In this document: one piece after another, positions 11,069 to 23,895 of the stretch
How positions within the stretch are numbered: the first letter of the stretch is position 1
Layout: the number at the start of each line of letters is the position of its first letter
Sequence record: PZ495249.1
Origin: a phage
Strand: one strand, 5' to 3'
Length of the DNA: 64,000 bases
The notes under the pieces: model-generated
Seen by the model: only the letters and a program-made list of their open reading frames with translations
Told to the model about the DNA's origin: nothing
The model's database searches: none
Position numbers and translations under genes: made by a program

Positions 11069-11362
11069 TTAGAATGCCAACACTTTCTTCGTTTCGGTAG
11101 GTGCAGTATCGAACAAGTCGATCACAAAGTCAAGCATTTTTATTAACTCGTTTGTGACATTAAACTCTTTATACGAACGGAGTTGAGTTTTCTCTTCTCC
11201 CACCTGGTGCAACACCTTAATCGGTGCATCCAGACGAATGTTACGATCTTCGTCCTCCTCGAAAGAAGCTAACCATTTCTCGTTAACACCGTGGATAGCA
11301 ATGATGATGCCATACCCTTCGGCTGTTTCTGAGATGTTCTTGGTAGATGCAATGATTTTCAT
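11069..11362 (-). CDS. hypothetical protein (97 aa), first gene of the leftward unit
   Basis: track ORF; AGAGGAG RBS; promoter at about 11392..11419. Confidence 0.55.
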   Translation of the reverse strand: MKIIASTKNISETAEGYGIIIAIHGVNEKWLASFEEDEDRNIRLDAPIKVLHQVGEEKTQLRSYKEFNVTNELIKMLDFVIDLFDTAPTETKKVLAF

Positions 11363-11391: not shown

Positions 11392-11419
11392 ATCTTACTT
11401 GAAAAATATTTCATGTCAA
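11392..11419 (-). promoter_or_regulatory. leftward promoter TTGACA-N16-TAAGAT
   Basis: divergent pair with rightward promoter; -35 hexamers about 3 nt apart. Confidence 0.5.
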
Positions 11420-11422
11420 GTG

Positions 11423-11450
11423 TTGACTTTCATTTCTGGTTTGATAAGAT
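11423..11450 (+). promoter_or_regulatory. rightward promoter TTGACT-N16-TAAGAT
   Basis: 30 nt upstream of RBS of gene 11481..11969; strand-switch point. Confidence 0.5.
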
Positions 11451-11480
11451 TGTTGCATACAAAACGAGAGGAGACACCTA

Positions 11481-11969
11481 ATGTACAATCTGACCTGGAC
11501 TCAAGCCCAAGAAGCAATGCGTGAAGGTAAACGTGTTAAGAACAGCAACTTCACGGACGAAGAGTTCTTCTATATGGAAGATGGAAAGATCTGGGATGAG
11601 CAGGGCTACCCAATGGCTGGCTGGTATCGTGGCTACGATTGGCAGGAGGCAGGTTGGATGATCCTGGAAGACAACTTCAAACCTTTTGAAGAAGATATCT
11701 CAGAATCTGCCTGGAAAGAAGAAGAGATCCGTCTTACTGGTGCAGAACGCCAGAAGATGAAAGCTGTTATGCTTGGTGAAAACTATTCTGCACTGGAGGA
11801 GAAAGTTCTTGCACTTTACGCAGGGCAAGGTTATGATTTGGAAACTATGGATTGCTACGTTGGTATCACTCCACGATCTCCGACCTTACCTCGTGAAAAG
11901 GAGAACTACAACTTCCGTATCACGAAAGGTCGTGGTCATAACAAATTACAGAAGAGGAAAAAGAAATGA
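11481..11969 (+). CDS. hypothetical protein, N-terminus resembling DUF2829 (Tad2-like) fold
   Basis: track ORF; GAGAGGAG RBS; N-terminal W..A.EAMREGKRV...GW...DW pattern; first gene after rightward promoter. Confidence 0.6.
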   Translation: MYNLTWTQAQEAMREGKRVKNSNFTDEEFFYMEDGKIWDEQGYPMAGWYRGYDWQEAGWMILEDNFKPFEEDISESAWKEEEIRLTGAERQKMKAVMLGENYSALEEKVLALYAGQGYDLETMDCYVGITPRSPTLPREKENYNFRITKGRGHNKLQKRKKK

Positions 11970-12073
11970 TAACATTTCTGTTAGGGTTGGGTATCGGAAC
12001 ACTATTAGGATATATAGCTGTTGTTCTTATCGTTGGAGCAATAGCGGTTTTAATTTTAGATCTATTCAGTTAA
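11966..12073 (+). CDS. small hydrophobic protein (35 aa)
   Basis: hand-called ORF; ATGA start/stop overlap with upstream gene; one predicted helix. Confidence 0.3.
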   Translation: MITFLLGLGIGTLLGYIAVVLIVGAIAVLILDLFS

Positions 12074-12421: not shown

Positions 12422-12829
12422 ATGAAAAAACAATCTATCTTCAATACTGCTGTGGGTGTCCTCACTATCGCCTTAGCTACGGTTAGTCTTATTGGTTGTG
12501 AACAAGCTGCTGACGTTGCAAGCCGTAACATCGCCACCGCTGGCGATAACTTTGAAGTGTTGCGTTCTATTCACTTCATCAACACCCGTACAGATAAAGA
12601 ACTCATGCGTATCGAAGGTTACTGTGCGAAAGACAACAGTAGCACTGATCGTACACTGATCATCACCTGCCGAGATAAGGCCAACGGTTCCGTGAAGAAG
12701 CACTATATGGGGCTGTCTACCGACACCACCTACTTCATTGAACAAGTGGATGGTGCTCAGGTGAGCGTGGATCACACCCGTGTTATCTTTGCTCCACAAA
12801 CTCTGATCCCAAGTCTGGAAGTACGCTAA
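12422..12829 (+). CDS. lipoprotein (lipobox L-I-G-C)
   Basis: track ORF; signal peptide ending in LIGC; AAGGAGGAG RBS. Confidence 0.65.
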   Translation: MKKQSIFNTAVGVLTIALATVSLIGCEQAADVASRNIATAGDNFEVLRSIHFINTRTDKELMRIEGYCAKDNSSTDRTLIITCRDKANGSVKKHYMGLSTDTTYFIEQVDGAQVSVDHTRVIFAPQTLIPSLEVR

Positions 12830-15651: not shown

Positions 15652-16722
15652 ATGAAAGTAGGCTTAATTTTCGGTAAATTTGCACCACTGACAGCAGGAC
15701 ATGTCAACTTCATCCGTATGGCAGTAGAGTCGGGCATTGATCGTCTGTATTTGTTCCTGTCTTTCGACCAGAAGTTCAACGACACTCAAACTCCGTGGAT
15801 GCAGAAGCGCCTTGGCCTCACACAACGTTTGTGGGATCTCAAGTCTCTTATCGAAGACTCTGGACTCACTCGCAAAGTGATCGTAGACTACGTGGACGAG
15901 TCCAACATTCCTGGCTACCCAGAAGGTGGTAAGGCGTATGCTGAGTTGATTCGTGCTAAGATCCCCGAAGGAGAGGTGTTGACACACGCATTCTCTTCTG
16001 AGCCGGAGTATACTGCCTACTTCTCTGAGTATTTCCCAGAGGTGGAGCATGTTGTGCTGGATGCAGAGCGCAGCGGAGTAGATATTTCTGCTACACGCAT
16101 CCGTACCAACCTGCGGGACAACTTCGAGTATCTTTCCGAGCAAGCTAAACCTCGCTTTGTCAAGCGTGTGGCTATTATCGGTGTAGAAAGCACTGGTAAA
16201 TCCACGATGACCGAGCGTTTAGCTCACCACTACGCAACAACGTCTACGCCTGAGATCGGGCGGGACATTTGCGAAGAGTTATTCTGTGGTAGTGAATTCC
16301 TAATGGATCGTGAAGCGTATCTCAAAGTTGCTATGGCACACCGTATGGAAGAATATATGCACTCCAACGAGGCACACGTTGTCCACATCTCGGACACCAC
16401 CAACTTGATCACGCACTTCTCCGGTATTTGTTCAGGCAAACTGTATCTGAACGACCATATGTTCAGGGCTTTATCTCGTGAAGAAGCTAACACCTTCTAT
16501 GACCTGGTGTTGTTCCTGTCTCCAGAAGTCGAGTGGGTAGAAGATCCTCTGCGACTGCAAAATACGCCACGGAAACGACTTGACACACATAATTTCCTTG
16601 ATATGATGGTGACTGAACATTATGTCGGTCGTGTTCCTGTTGTTCACATCACGGGTACGGACTATGAAGATCGTATCAACCAGGCTATTAAAGCCATTGA
16701 TAAACTTTTAGCGGAGGGTTGA
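15652..16722 (+). CDS. nadR: NadR-like bifunctional NMN adenylyltransferase / ribosylnicotinamide kinase (no HTH domain)
   Basis: N-terminal nucleotidyltransferase motif GKFAPLTAGH; C-terminal P-loop GVESTGKST; AAAGGAG RBS. Confidence 0.8.
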   Translation: MKVGLIFGKFAPLTAGHVNFIRMAVESGIDRLYLFLSFDQKFNDTQTPWMQKRLGLTQRLWDLKSLIEDSGLTRKVIVDYVDESNIPGYPEGGKAYAELIRAKIPEGEVLTHAFSSEPEYTAYFSEYFPEVEHVVLDAERSGVDISATRIRTNLRDNFEYLSEQAKPRFVKRVAIIGVESTGKSTMTERLAHHYATTSTPEIGRDICEELFCGSEFLMDREAYLKVAMAHRMEEYMHSNEAHVVHISDTTNLITHFSGICSGKLYLNDHMFRALSREEANTFYDLVLFLSPEVEWVEDPLRLQNTPRKRLDTHNFLDMMVTEHYVGRVPVVHITGTDYEDRINQAIKAIDKLLAEG

Positions 16723-17281: not shown

Positions 17282-17305
17282 TTTAATCCTAAAGAGGAGA
17301 TGAAC

Positions 17306-17998
17306 ATGAACTTATACGTTAAATCCACCTGGACTGACTTCTACGGCTGGAAACCTTTGGAATATCTTTGGTTGGTTATCTGTACTGCCAGTATCGGTGC
17401 GATCTCTATTGCGATGAACAGTACGCTGGTTGAGTTTATCTCCTCAGTAACAGGGATTGTAGGTGCAATCCTTGTGGCAAAGGGTAAAATTTCAAGCTAC
17501 TGGTGGGGTGTCATTGCTACGGCACTCTACGCATGGATCTCATACAAATACCAACTCTTCGGTGAAGCGATCATGTACACACTCGTGTTCCTCCCGATGC
17601 AGTTCTGGGGTGCAGTGGTGTGGAGTCGAAAGCTGAATGTAAGTGGAGATCGTGCAGATGTTATCAAGAACTACCTGACGACAAAGCAACGCATTTGGGT
17701 GAGCGTCGGTACGCTGGCAGCAATTGGGCTTTATGCCTTGTTCGTAGCCGAACTGAAAGGTAGTATGCCTGGTTTGGATTCTGCAACTGCAATCCTGTCC
17801 ATTCTGGCTACCACACTTATGATGTACCGTTATGCTGAGCAATGGTATGTTTGGGTGTTGGTTAACATCGTGGCAGTGGTCATGTGGATTCAGGCTACAC
17901 TACACCATGAAGGTGGTGGCGCAGCAGTGCTGGCAATGTGGGTAGCATTCCTGCTTAACTCTCTGTTTGGAGTGTACCAATGGCGCAAGCAAAGTTAG
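17306..17998 (+). CDS. pnuC: PnuC-family nicotinamide riboside transporter
   Basis: multi-helix membrane protein with PnuC-like W/Y-rich pattern; AGAGGAG RBS (alternative ATG at 17300). Confidence 0.8.
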   Translation: MNLYVKSTWTDFYGWKPLEYLWLVICTASIGAISIAMNSTLVEFISSVTGIVGAILVAKGKISSYWWGVIATALYAWISYKYQLFGEAIMYTLVFLPMQFWGAVVWSRKLNVSGDRADVIKNYLTTKQRIWVSVGTLAAIGLYALFVAELKGSMPGLDSATAILSILATTLMMYRYAEQWYVWVLVNIVAVVMWIQATLHHEGGGAAVLAMWVAFLLNSLFGVYQWRKQS

Positions 17999-20730: not shown

Positions 20731-21192
20731 ATGAGTAAACGTTTTGGACGAAACCAAAAACGCAAAATGCGTGAAGCTCTGGCTGCACAGCAAGAACAAT
20801 TAAATAAATTGCAGAGAGATCTTGACAACAGTCGTAATGAGAATAGAATGGAGCGCGAATGTCTTGAAATGACATGCGAACTCCTGGGAGAATATTTCCC
20901 AACCCTCATGCCTAAAACCAAAGATGTAAATTACCTTCCAGTACAATTAGCTCGTACATCTGGTGAAGATATCTACAATATGATGGCGACTATTCACACC
21001 TTACGAGGTATTGAGTATCGTGCTGACCTCGACAGATTACGAGATACTATGTATATCCGTGTCTCTACACCGGAAGGTGGTACTGTGGCATATAACTGGC
21101 AGTTTAGAAATCTGCCCTCACACATCATGGAGCGAGTATTGGAACGAGATCTGATTCCCATGTTAGTGAATGAAATTAAGAGAGGAATGTAA
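20731..21192 (+). CDS. coiled-coil protein (153 aa)
   Basis: track ORF; GAGGAGG RBS. Confidence 0.6.
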   Translation: MSKRFGRNQKRKMREALAAQQEQLNKLQRDLDNSRNENRMERECLEMTCELLGEYFPTLMPKTKDVNYLPVQLARTSGEDIYNMMATIHTLRGIEYRADLDRLRDTMYIRVSTPEGGTVAYNWQFRNLPSHIMERVLERDLIPMLVNEIKRGM

Positions 21193-23006
21193 TGGCTAAA
21201 AGCGAACTAAGTTTTACACCGACTGACGAACAATTTGCAATTGAAGGTGCGTTCAAAGAGAACCGATTCACCACCATTCAAGCTAAATCTGGATCTGGTA
21301 AAACTTCCACATTGTATATGCTGGCAAATGGTACGGATGATAAGATCCTGTATCTGGCATTTAACAAAAGCATGGCAGAAGAAGCCCGTCGCAAGATGCC
21401 GGATAATGTAGAATGCAGAACATTGCATTCCATATGCTACCAGCAACTGGATCAGTCTCTGCGTCACAAGCTGACACGTCCAGAAGGTGCATACGTTAAC
21501 GTGGCAGGAACGGGTAACGAGATTGCCAAGAAGTTCAAAATCAATAACTTGATTGATAAAAATGGGAAAACTCTGCTCACTCGTGCAATGATTGGTTTGA
21601 TGATCAAGCAAACTGTGGGTAAGTTTGAATTCTCCGACGATGCTCACCTGGGGCGTAAACACTTCCCTACTGTGCATCTGGCAGATATTAAACGCAAAAA
21701 CATCAATGAAAACAAACTGATTTCAGAGGTGGTTACGTATGCTAAACAGCTTTGGCGTGAACGTATTGATCCTAAGTCAGAAACAATCATGACTCACGAC
21801 ACCTATGTGAAACTGTTTGAATTGTCGGGTAAAGACTTGGGATACGATATCATCTTTGGTGATGAGTTCCAGGACGTTAACCCTGCGTTCCTGTCCATCC
21901 TGCGTAATGCCAAGGCAGCTAAACGCATTGTGGTGGTAGGGGATGAATTCCAGAGTATCTATCAGTTCCGTGGTAGTCAGAACATGATGAAAGAAACCTC
22001 CACCTACGGTGTAGAACTTCCTCTGACAGCATGTTTTCGATTCGGTCCGAAAGTGGCAACTATCGCCAACATGATCCTGGAAGATAAAGAACCGCTGGCT
22101 CACCCGCTGGTAGGTAAAGGTTATGATACAACGGTAGGCAGTTATGTCTCTGATATGGTGGATTACACCAAGCCGTATACAATCATCTTCCGTAAAAACC
22201 TGACACTGCTGATGGAAGCAATGGATCGTATCGCTGATGGTGAGGAGATTATCATCAACGTTGACACCAAAGACTTTATCTCAATGGTGGATAGCGTGAA
22301 CGCTCTGCGTCGTGGTGATATTGAGAAGGTGAAACACGAAACAGTGTTACCATATGCAAACTGGGATGAGTTTGTAGAGTGCGCTGAGAGCGATCCTGAC
22401 GCGAAACGACTGCTTAACGTAGTTGTGAGTGGGAAAGCGAATACAATCGCTCACACCCTGCGTACACATCGAAATTCACCTACTGCGAAGGTGACGCTCA
22501 CTACGGCTCACAAGTCAAAAGGTCTGGAGTGGGATCAGGTAGTTGTTGCTAACGACTTCCCTTCCAACTATGATAAGAAAACAGGGGAATGGGTGGGTTT
22601 GGAAGAAGCAGAGCGTAACCTGTTGTACGTAGCCCACACTCGTTGTATCAAATGCTTACAGTGGAACAGCACTGTTCAAGAGATTATTGATATCAGGGGT
22701 GTAGCGCAGGAGAAAACTGCGCCCCCAAAGGAGAAGCCGCTTAAAGGCGGCATCCCCATCGAAAATGTTCGCTTAGGCGTGTTTGGTGCTGGCTGTACGA
22801 CAGCCAGTGATATCAAGTGCTTCGTAGCAGATAGCTTCGATGGTAACGATAACCACCTCCAGGCTTACGAAAGTTGGCTTGAAGATGGTGACGGTGAATT
22901 CCTGGGAGAGATTGATTTGATGCCGGACTTGTCCCGTAGCAATGACCTCTTAGGACGCATCGAAAGAAAGATAGCAATGGAAAACTATGACGGAGATACC
23001 TGTTAA
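21192..23006 (+). CDS. UvrD/PcrA-like superfamily 1 DNA helicase
   Basis: Walker A AKSGSGKT; Walker B FGDEFQD; helicase C-terminal motifs; 604 aa. Confidence 0.8.
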   Translation: MAKSELSFTPTDEQFAIEGAFKENRFTTIQAKSGSGKTSTLYMLANGTDDKILYLAFNKSMAEEARRKMPDNVECRTLHSICYQQLDQSLRHKLTRPEGAYVNVAGTGNEIAKKFKINNLIDKNGKTLLTRAMIGLMIKQTVGKFEFSDDAHLGRKHFPTVHLADIKRKNINENKLISEVVTYAKQLWRERIDPKSETIMTHDTYVKLFELSGKDLGYDIIFGDEFQDVNPAFLSILRNAKAAKRIVVVGDEFQSIYQFRGSQNMMKETSTYGVELPLTACFRFGPKVATIANMILEDKEPLAHPLVGKGYDTTVGSYVSDMVDYTKPYTIIFRKNLTLLMEAMDRIADGEEIIINVDTKDFISMVDSVNALRRGDIEKVKHETVLPYANWDEFVECAESDPDAKRLLNVVVSGKANTIAHTLRTHRNSPTAKVTLTTAHKSKGLEWDQVVVANDFPSNYDKKTGEWVGLEEAERNLLYVAHTRCIKCLQWNSTVQEIIDIRGVAQEKTAPPKEKPLKGGIPIENVRLGVFGAGCTTASDIKCFVADSFDGNDNHLQAYESWLEDGDGEFLGEIDLMPDLSRSNDLLGRIERKIAMENYDGDTC

Positions 23007-23460: not shown

Positions 23461-23895
23461 ATGAGCATTGTAACTCAAATGAAAGCAGATCGTATTCTGG
23501 CACGTACCACAGATAAAGGTGCGTTCGCCCTGTTAACCAATATCATCGGTGAGTTTGATCTCGCTCGTACTCAGAAAGCGAATCTGGGTAAATCCGAAGA
23601 CGATATCATGATCAATATCGTAAAAGTCGGGATTGCTCACACCAAAGAAGAGATTGCTTCTCTGAAAGCTGTATCTGCTTCCCAGGCACGTATCGAACGT
23701 GCAGAGCGCGATGTTATCGTACTGGAGCGCTATCTGCCGGAAATGCTGTCTGAGGAAGACCTGCGTTTCATTGCAGAAGAATTTGCTCTATCTGGTAAGA
23801 AAATGCCCGATATGATGAAACACCTGCGTACTGATTTCCCTAACCAGTACGATGGTAAACTGGCTTCCACTATCGCTAAGGAGATCTTGGGATGA
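23461..23895 (+). CDS. GatB/YqeY-domain protein
   Basis: track ORF; AAAGGAGAAAAG RBS; YqeY-like helical pattern (..LERYLPEMLSEEDL..). Confidence 0.65.
   Translation: MSIVTQMKADRILARTTDKGAFALLTNIIGEFDLARTQKANLGKSEDDIMINIVKVGIAHTKEEIASLKAVSASQARIERAERDVIVLERYLPEMLSEEDLRFIAEEFALSGKKMPDMMKHLRTDFPNQYDGKLASTIAKEILG

Follow-up and report, generated by a model that had tools for sequence, protein, structure and literature searches.

Introduction

Sponge proteins have repeatedly exposed new bacterial immune signals, e.g., histidine-ADP-ribose (His-ADPR), which was revealed via ModTad2. The Tad2 family (DUF2829) binds at least five classes of signal, namely glycocyclic ADP-ribose (gcADPR), His-ADPR, N7-cADPR, cCMP/cUMP and cyclic dinucleotides (PMC12393519; 10.1101/2024.01.03.573942; PMC10680739), therefore a Tad2 fold does not by itself imply an inhibitor of type I Thoeris. 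The Tad2 proteins of solved structure are 89-104 amino acids (aa) long; helix alpha2 and strand beta2 join two protomers into a dimer, and a pair of these dimers interlocks along alpha1. In SPO1 Tad2, gcADPR sits between non-dimeric protomers, in a pocket lined by W25, N26, W73 and D79, plus S76, T78, H71, D67, I63 and T65. In the long Tad2 forms cyclic dinucleotides are bound by an insertion between beta2 and beta5 (PMC10680739), and members of the family are often fused to other modules (PMC12265669). Here, we describe a gene at positions 11481..11969 (+ strand) of a 64,000-nucleotide (nt) stretch of phage DNA (sequence record PZ495249.1), hereafter the window, whose 162-aa product carries a reduced form of this fold at its N-terminus.

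The core fold of the canonical proteins (PF11195; SPO1 Tad2, 8SME/8SMF; HgmTad2, i.e., AcrIIA7, 8KBI; SptTad2, 8WJD; ModTad2, 9EIB) is common to the window protein. In both, an N-terminal helix with the motif xxFxxAxxAhxxGKxV leads into an antiparallel sheet, which is followed by an aromatic loop, a short helix and, at the end, a (D/G)-W strand; both are also phage-encoded, small and, for the window protein by prediction, early. However, the beta2-beta3/5 insertion with alpha2, which forms the interface of the dimer and a second pocket where cyclic dinucleotides bind, is reduced to a tight hairpin in the window protein. The ligand loop R-x-G-W-N-G is replaced by N(H)-x-x-F-T-D-x-E, the S-Q-T-D helix is not conserved, and new invariant acidic residues, E28 and E40, are present. 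The window protein also falls below the Pfam threshold and carries a 100-aa extension with a polybasic tail. Fused sponges such as Tad2-Acb4 and Tad2-Sequestin (PF21825; PMC12265669) similarly join a Tad2-type module to a second region in one polypeptide, but the second region of the window protein matches no known sponge family and consists mostly of a low-confidence variable linker and a short basic motif.

We conclude that the window protein is a new variant inside the Tad2 superfamily, and that it is not filed under PF11195 because it fails both the Pfam threshold and two defining residue/architecture features of canonical Tad2. The mini format as such is not unknown, since short proteins labelled DUF2829 are already in UniProt; we found no literature description of the unannotated status of this clade, its altered pocket or its polybasic/SEC-C tail architecture.

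Results

The N-terminal module has a predicted Tad2 core fold

The original prediction held that the N-terminus of this protein resembles the DUF2829/Tad2 fold, citing the pattern W..A.EAMREGKRVKN...GW...DW. Gene and pattern were both found exactly as described, with W6, A9, EAMREGKRVKN at 11-21, GW at 47-48 and DW at 53-54, and a further GW at 58-59. Profile, profile-profile and structure-model comparisons point to a minimal Tad2-like domain of the DUF2829 superfamily in residues 1-63 (11481..11669, + strand), for which helix 6-14, strands 18-21, 30-33 and 36-39, a short helix at 53-56 and a last strand at 59-62 are predicted.

When a profile of this domain was searched against all 177,635 distinct sequences of the Protein Data Bank (PDB), the top three matches were SptTad2 (E 8.7e-4), 8V3E Tad2 and ModTad2 (the latter two at E about 0.6), and both ends of the domain aligned to Tad2. 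Canonical Tad2-like sequence for comparison was obtained by tblastn of phage genomes. Against 17 canonical DUF2829 proteins, the hhalign match was limited to the first 25-31 columns, with probabilities of 81-89% (P about 1e-5 to 2e-6). AlphaFold2, given a deeper alignment, modelled residues 1-65 at a predicted local distance difference test score (pLDDT) of 94.2 and a predicted template modelling score of 0.79; in a model of the whole protein the N-terminal domain scored 73-82 and residues 64-162 below 61. The comparison with solved structures that had been proposed as a check upheld the resemblance, as 57 of the 65 modelled residues superposed on Tad2 at 1.7-1.8 Å. A Foldseek search of the PDB placed Tad2 chains in all of the top 12 positions (template modelling (TM) score 0.59-0.70, probability 0.75-0.99; E-values only 0.1-0.9 because the domain is short), and the 13th match dropped to a TM score of 0.24 and a probability of 0.15. 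In a library of viral models, the neighbours beyond the family's own members were proteins named DUF2829 or Tad2-like, some of them 60-63 aa long.

The PDB profile search, the HMMER family search, hhalign, and AlphaFold2 with Foldseek thus converge on Tad2. Structure modelling confirms a predicted Tad2/DUF2829 core fold for residues ~1-63, and the sequence comparisons support remote homology to the family; the resemblance is far beyond chance structurally, and weak but specific in sequence. Of the proposed assignment to DUF2829, the core fold therefore stands and remote homology is supported, but membership of PF11195 at its own threshold does not: the gathering threshold (25 bits) was missed, and neither the window protein nor 29 close homologs gave any match to the model even at E<=10. 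Two other candidates were set aside. Threonine aldolase, which was found by phmmer of the whole protein against the PDB (E 1.2), was dismissed as a chance match, and the designed Kelch-like 'SAKe' repeats that led the PDB matches with a broad alignment (A3) were summed sub-threshold repeats of which no single stretch passed.

The search for homologs returned 70, each on a contig of phage size (140-155 kb); a precomputed Pfam domain was attached to none of them. Their alignment falls into three zones, i.e., a conserved N-terminal module, a variable linker and a conserved C-terminal segment. The module (residues 1-63) has 17 positions that are invariant within the clade and is under strong purifying conservation.

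Architecture and ligand-pocket positions

The module has 63 aa, compared with 89-104 aa in the solved proteins. In its AlphaFold2 model, a turn of two residues that connects strands 30-33 and 36-39 is all that is left of the insertion, and alpha2 is missing. The SPO1 loop G-W-N-G aligns to N23-F24-T25-D26, such that the aromatic W25 (W21 in alignment A4) is retained as F24 and N26 (N22 in A4) is replaced by T25. The canonical R18 (A4 numbering) corresponds to N21, a position held by H in 72 of 81 mini-family members (see below).

Equivalences in the second half depend on the register that is chosen. In a low-scoring HMMER register W48 takes the place of SPO1 W73 and D53 that of D79, S76 and T78 become G51 and Y52, and G58-W59 matches the terminal D-W; hhalign prefers another register and still disagreed when it was forced over the whole domain (-mact 0.05, -glob). 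The HMMER register is favoured by the spacing between the two tryptophans, which is 11 residues here and 12 in canonical Tad2, and by the order of loop, short helix and last strand, which is the same as in canonical Tad2. Against it counts D53, which some close homologs replace by A, E, T or P. Given this conflict, the residue equivalences beyond position ~31 are tentative.

Across the mini-family the near-invariant residues are A9, G16, H21, F24, E28, E40, G42, G58 and W59, and the strongest conservation coincides with Tad2 ligand-loop positions (H/N21, F24, E28, E40, W48/F-W and G58-W59). The chemistry at these positions, however, differs from that of the gcADPR site (R-x-G-W-N-G and W-x-x-S-x-T-D), therefore the ligand of the module, judged from its residues, is probably something other than 1''-3' gcADPR. 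The kinship with gcADPR-sequestering Tad2 proteins that had been proposed is not supported at the binding residues, since W25/N26 have become F24/T25 and, in the tentatively aligned second half, S76 and T78 appear lost and the residue matching D79 is retained in part of the homologs.

A widespread mini-family of stand-alone modules

Residues 1-63 match positions 1-63 of the 64 in phrog_3474 (E 6.9e-28), and a second family, phrog_22208, covers the full-length architecture. An exhaustive HMMER search of 1.84 billion cluster representatives recovered 305 related clusters (50% identity), mostly stand-alone proteins of 59-75 aa. PF11195 was matched by 37 of 81 stand-alone relatives (best E 1.9e-6), almost all below 25 bits, and no other family recurred; some relatives aligned end to end with the 73-position model, e.g., P0139 (1-72/73) and P0147 (1-69/73). 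PHROGs separates the mini-family (phrog_3474, phrog_22208) from canonical DUF2829 (phrog_1048, phrog_872), and the relative P0132 bridges both. The homology between the window protein and this mini-family is significant across the whole N-terminal module. They differ in that the mini-family consists mostly of the module alone, whereas the window clade adds a linker, a helix and a polybasic tail, and has N for H at position 21. One relative (P0100, 175 aa) contains two tandem copies of the module, which hints at a possible oligomer in the form of a covalent dimer.

By tblastn the module was found in 450 phage genomes, including those of Klebsiella (169), Escherichia (110) and Salmonella (73) phages, and every copy was annotated as hypothetical. 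In the T5-like phage saus176N a 65-aa stand-alone copy (L004 3501-3698) lies in the left terminal repeat, i.e., the pre-early, first-step-transfer region, near gene A2, and in T4-like Jiaodavirus a stand-alone copy sits among the small early genes between nrdG/glutaredoxin and gp55. A further Tad2 fusion, annotated only as hypothetical, was noticed in Escherichia phage Kapi1, where a 173-aa protein (L003 185-706) has an unannotated N-terminal region of ~75 aa and a canonical DUF2829/Tad2 domain as its C-terminal half.

The C-terminal extension and its polybasic tail

The ~100-aa extension had been described as basic, which turned out to be true of its last 27 residues only (pI, i.e., isoelectric point, 11.2), as residues 64-135 are acidic (pI 4.2-4.6). 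It begins with an acidic linker (residues 64-101; 11670..11783, + strand; pI 4.6) of low model confidence (pLDDT 44-56), with indels and little conservation in the homolog alignment (A1). The moderately conserved segment that follows (residues 102-135; 11784..11885, + strand) has a predicted helix at 103-115 with the motif [ND][FY]SALEx[KR]V and found no family or structure match in Pfam, PDB or homology searches. The protein ends in a conserved polybasic tail (residues 136-162; 11886..11966, + strand), PREKxNYNFRITKGRGHNKLQKRKKK, with 11 K/R. Over residues 64-162 as a whole no family or fold was detected, the model confidence (pLDDT below 61) being too low for a fold search.

Three distant relatives whose linkers are unrelated (P0071, P0073 and P0082) also carry the tail motif KG[RK]GHN[KR]LQKRKKK, and the tail weakly matches the C-terminus of phrog_27594. 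Neither a tblastn search of isolates, which found the tail in seven Klebsiella phages only, nor a query with the last 60 residues, which returned 2 fragments only, gave a clue to its function, and a six-frame motif scan of the window found the motif in the 11481..11969 gene alone. Among the cluster representatives that extend the module by >=25 residues, 12 of 37 end in polybasic or Cys-rich tails. Three of these 12 (P0113, P0129 and P0187) carry a SEC-C motif C-terminal to the module (PF02810, above threshold), and others (P0147, P0213, P0167 and P0105) end in unrelated polybasic tails. The SEC-C tails, of the type found at the C-terminus of SecA, resemble the tail of the window protein in being short, basic C-terminal appendages at the same position; unlike them, the latter has no cysteines and is not SEC-C, and a functional equivalence would be inferred only.

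Promoters, reading frame and genomic neighbourhood

A Shine-Dalgarno sequence, AGGAG (11469..11473, + strand), is visible in the sequence 7 nt ahead of the ATG. A putative sigma-70-like promoter (11423..11450, + strand) lies 30 nt upstream of the gene and comprises TTGACT, a 16-nt spacer, TAAGAT and an extended -10 TG. Back-to-back with it is a putative leftward counterpart (11419..11392, - strand; TTGACA-16-TAAGAT), and in a consensus scan the two (window 11392-11450) matched at 9/12 and 10/12 positions. We infer that these promoters drive divergent gene blocks, which makes the 11481..11969 gene the leading one in the rightward unit of a divergently transcribed early region. The first leftward gene past the promoters (11069-11362, - strand) encodes a DUF7325 protein (E 5e-19).

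The DNA relatives of the window phage (~150 kb) are Stephanstirmvirinae-type Klebsiella phages (KP13-26, KP2025 and FKP3; ~80% identity), and the locus is plastic among them. In the window the gene is the first rightward one, as originally described; in KP13-26 it is not, since an extra 120-aa ORF (open reading frame; L001 3075-3437) separates the Tad2-like homolog from the early promoter region, therefore the promoter-proximal slot varies between related phages. KP13-26 also has a different small ORF after the homolog. In the window this place is taken by a 35-aa ORF (11966..12073, + strand; MITFLLGLGIGTLLGYIAVVLIVGAIAVLILDLFS), which is composed entirely of a hydrophobic stretch and is possibly translationally coupled to the Tad2-like gene, as its ATG overlaps the stop of that gene (ATGA); the ORF in its place in KP13-26 encodes 59 aa and is unrelated.

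The counter-defence neighbourhood based on NAD salvage that had been suggested was also recovered. About 4 kb downstream and on the same strand lie a NadR-like nicotinamide mononucleotide adenylyltransferase/ribosylnicotinamide kinase (15652-16722, +; TIGR01526 nadR, E 4e-54, 184 bits against an equivalog cut-off of 341; AAA_28) and, about 580 nt beyond it, a PnuC-like nicotinamide riboside transporter (17300-17998, +; TIGR01528, 111 bits against a cut-off of 42; PF04973). The predicted content of this pair agrees with that of the two-gene NARP3 module, an NAD+-restoring counter-defence module of NadR-like and PnuC-like genes described in 2026 that is reported to be rare in Klebsiella phages (about 1% of 124 matches) (PMC13464706).

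Other genes of the rightward block include one for a 135-aa Phage_VG64 protein (12422-12829, +; Pfam, E 3e-42), which starts with a signal sequence that closes with a lipobox-like L-I-G-C and may be a phage lipoprotein. Further along are a UvrD/Rep-type helicase of 604 aa (21192-23006, +) and a YqeY-like protein (23461-23895, +).

Discussion

It is plausible from these comparisons that the product of 11481..11969 is a counter-defence protein. The reading that we favour, though tentatively, is that of an early accessory protein in which a re-tooled minimal Tad2 pocket sequesters a nucleotide-derived signal and the tail gives localisation. The predicted fold of the module includes helix alpha1 and the core of the beta-sheet, along with the loop between beta1 and beta2, the aromatic loop that leads into the short helix, and the final G-W strand; the alpha2 insertion is missing from it, and, like Tad2, the module would oligomerise. 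A pocket made of the beta1-beta2 loop and the aromatic loop would then sequester a small nucleotide-derived immune signal, while the C-terminal helix and polybasic tail would tether or concentrate the module at a polyanionic structure of the cell, for example nucleic acid, ribosome or membrane; in other relatives a SEC-C zinc motif or other polybasic tails would replace the helix and tail. The gene is promoter-proximal and probably expressed early, which is supported by the sigma-70-like promoter upstream and by the stand-alone copies in T5-like pre-early and T4-like early regions. A sponge mechanism is judged the most likely because every characterised protein of the Tad2 fold is an oligomeric sponge and the signals bound have already diversified.

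Several observations weigh against this reading. The 162-aa protein alone has no match in Pfam (hmmscan, E<=10), NCBIfam or PADLOC, and of ten relatives scored individually only P0132 clears PF11195 (28.7 bits), the others reaching 14-22. Significant profile-profile similarity is confined to the first columns of the domain, and the register of the C-terminal half differs between HMMER and hhalign. The window clade has N at position 21 where the wider mini-family is almost invariantly H, and the N-terminal domain is acidic (pI 4.4), in contrast to the positively charged pockets of known sponges (PMC12265669). Since alpha2, the canonical dimer interface, is absent, a Tad2-like tetramer is not assured. 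Lastly, the NARP3-like pair fits a counter-defence region but is circumstantial and proves nothing about the Tad2-like gene.

Some of these points would suit a different account, which we consider somewhat unlikely, in which the Tad2 fold is no small-molecule sponge but has been repurposed to bind protein or nucleic acid within an early factor for host takeover; the main functional element would then be the tail, or SEC-C in relatives, which might bind DNA, RNA, the ribosome or the membrane. This account stays credible given the tail fusions, the acidic surface and the lack of the dimerisation element. The gcADPR contacts are not conserved, PHROGs sets the family apart from canonical DUF2829, and the module is joined to many unrelated C-terminal regions, including SEC-C and polybasic tails, which canonical sponges do not have. 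However, most family members are stand-alone proteins of 59-70 aa without a tail, which argues that the module has a function of its own, the most conserved residues fall on Tad2 ligand-loop positions, and all characterised proteins of this fold are sponges.

A bolder form of the sponge reading, which we consider rather unlikely, is that the phrog_3474 mini-family is a distinct and unrecognised Tad2 branch whose re-tooled pocket takes a new immune or metabolic signal, the polybasic-tailed form seen here being a 'tethered sponge' and the SEC-C forms analogous to it. TadIV-1, a T4 protein that sponges N7-cADPR, was also considered as a relative but set aside, since its authors call it structurally distinct from all known sponges.

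That the protein is a classic Tad2, i.e., a sponge for 1''-3'/1''-2' gcADPR blocking type I Thoeris, appears quite improbable. The fold is the same, the aromatics W25 and W73 of SPO1 are kept as F24 and W48, with D53 for D79 in the HMMER register, and the nearby NARP3-like module likewise counters NAD+-depleting defences. Yet the polar contacts that gcADPR binding relies upon are replaced: N26 has become T, S76 and T78 appear lost, and D53 varies even in close homologs. The invariant R-x-G-W-N-G loop is also replaced, and strand beta4 and the insertion that supply I63, T65 and D67 are shortened. Moreover, canonical-looking homologs such as ModTad2 do not bind gcADPR. A convergent or accidental similarity, in which a small alpha+beta domain unrelated to Tad2 merely resembles it, would account for the empty pairwise and Pfam searches with the protein itself and for the modest Foldseek E-values, but is effectively excluded by the convergence of the other methods on Tad2.

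Hundreds of phages of Klebsiella, E. coli and Salmonella encode the minimal Tad2-fold module, among them myoviruses of therapeutic type, and it is also present in the pre-early regions of T5-like phages. With a pocket that is conserved but chemically different, this wide spread and its annotation as hypothetical, the module is a concrete candidate for new ligand specificity; its short length of 63 aa would make tests cheap. It follows from these results that searches at the Pfam threshold miss part of the Tad2 superfamily. The recurring fusion to polybasic or SEC-C tails is not explained by current sponge models. If the module binds no small molecules, it would be the first case of the Tad2 fold serving another purpose; if the tethered sponge is real, it would be an architecture not described before.
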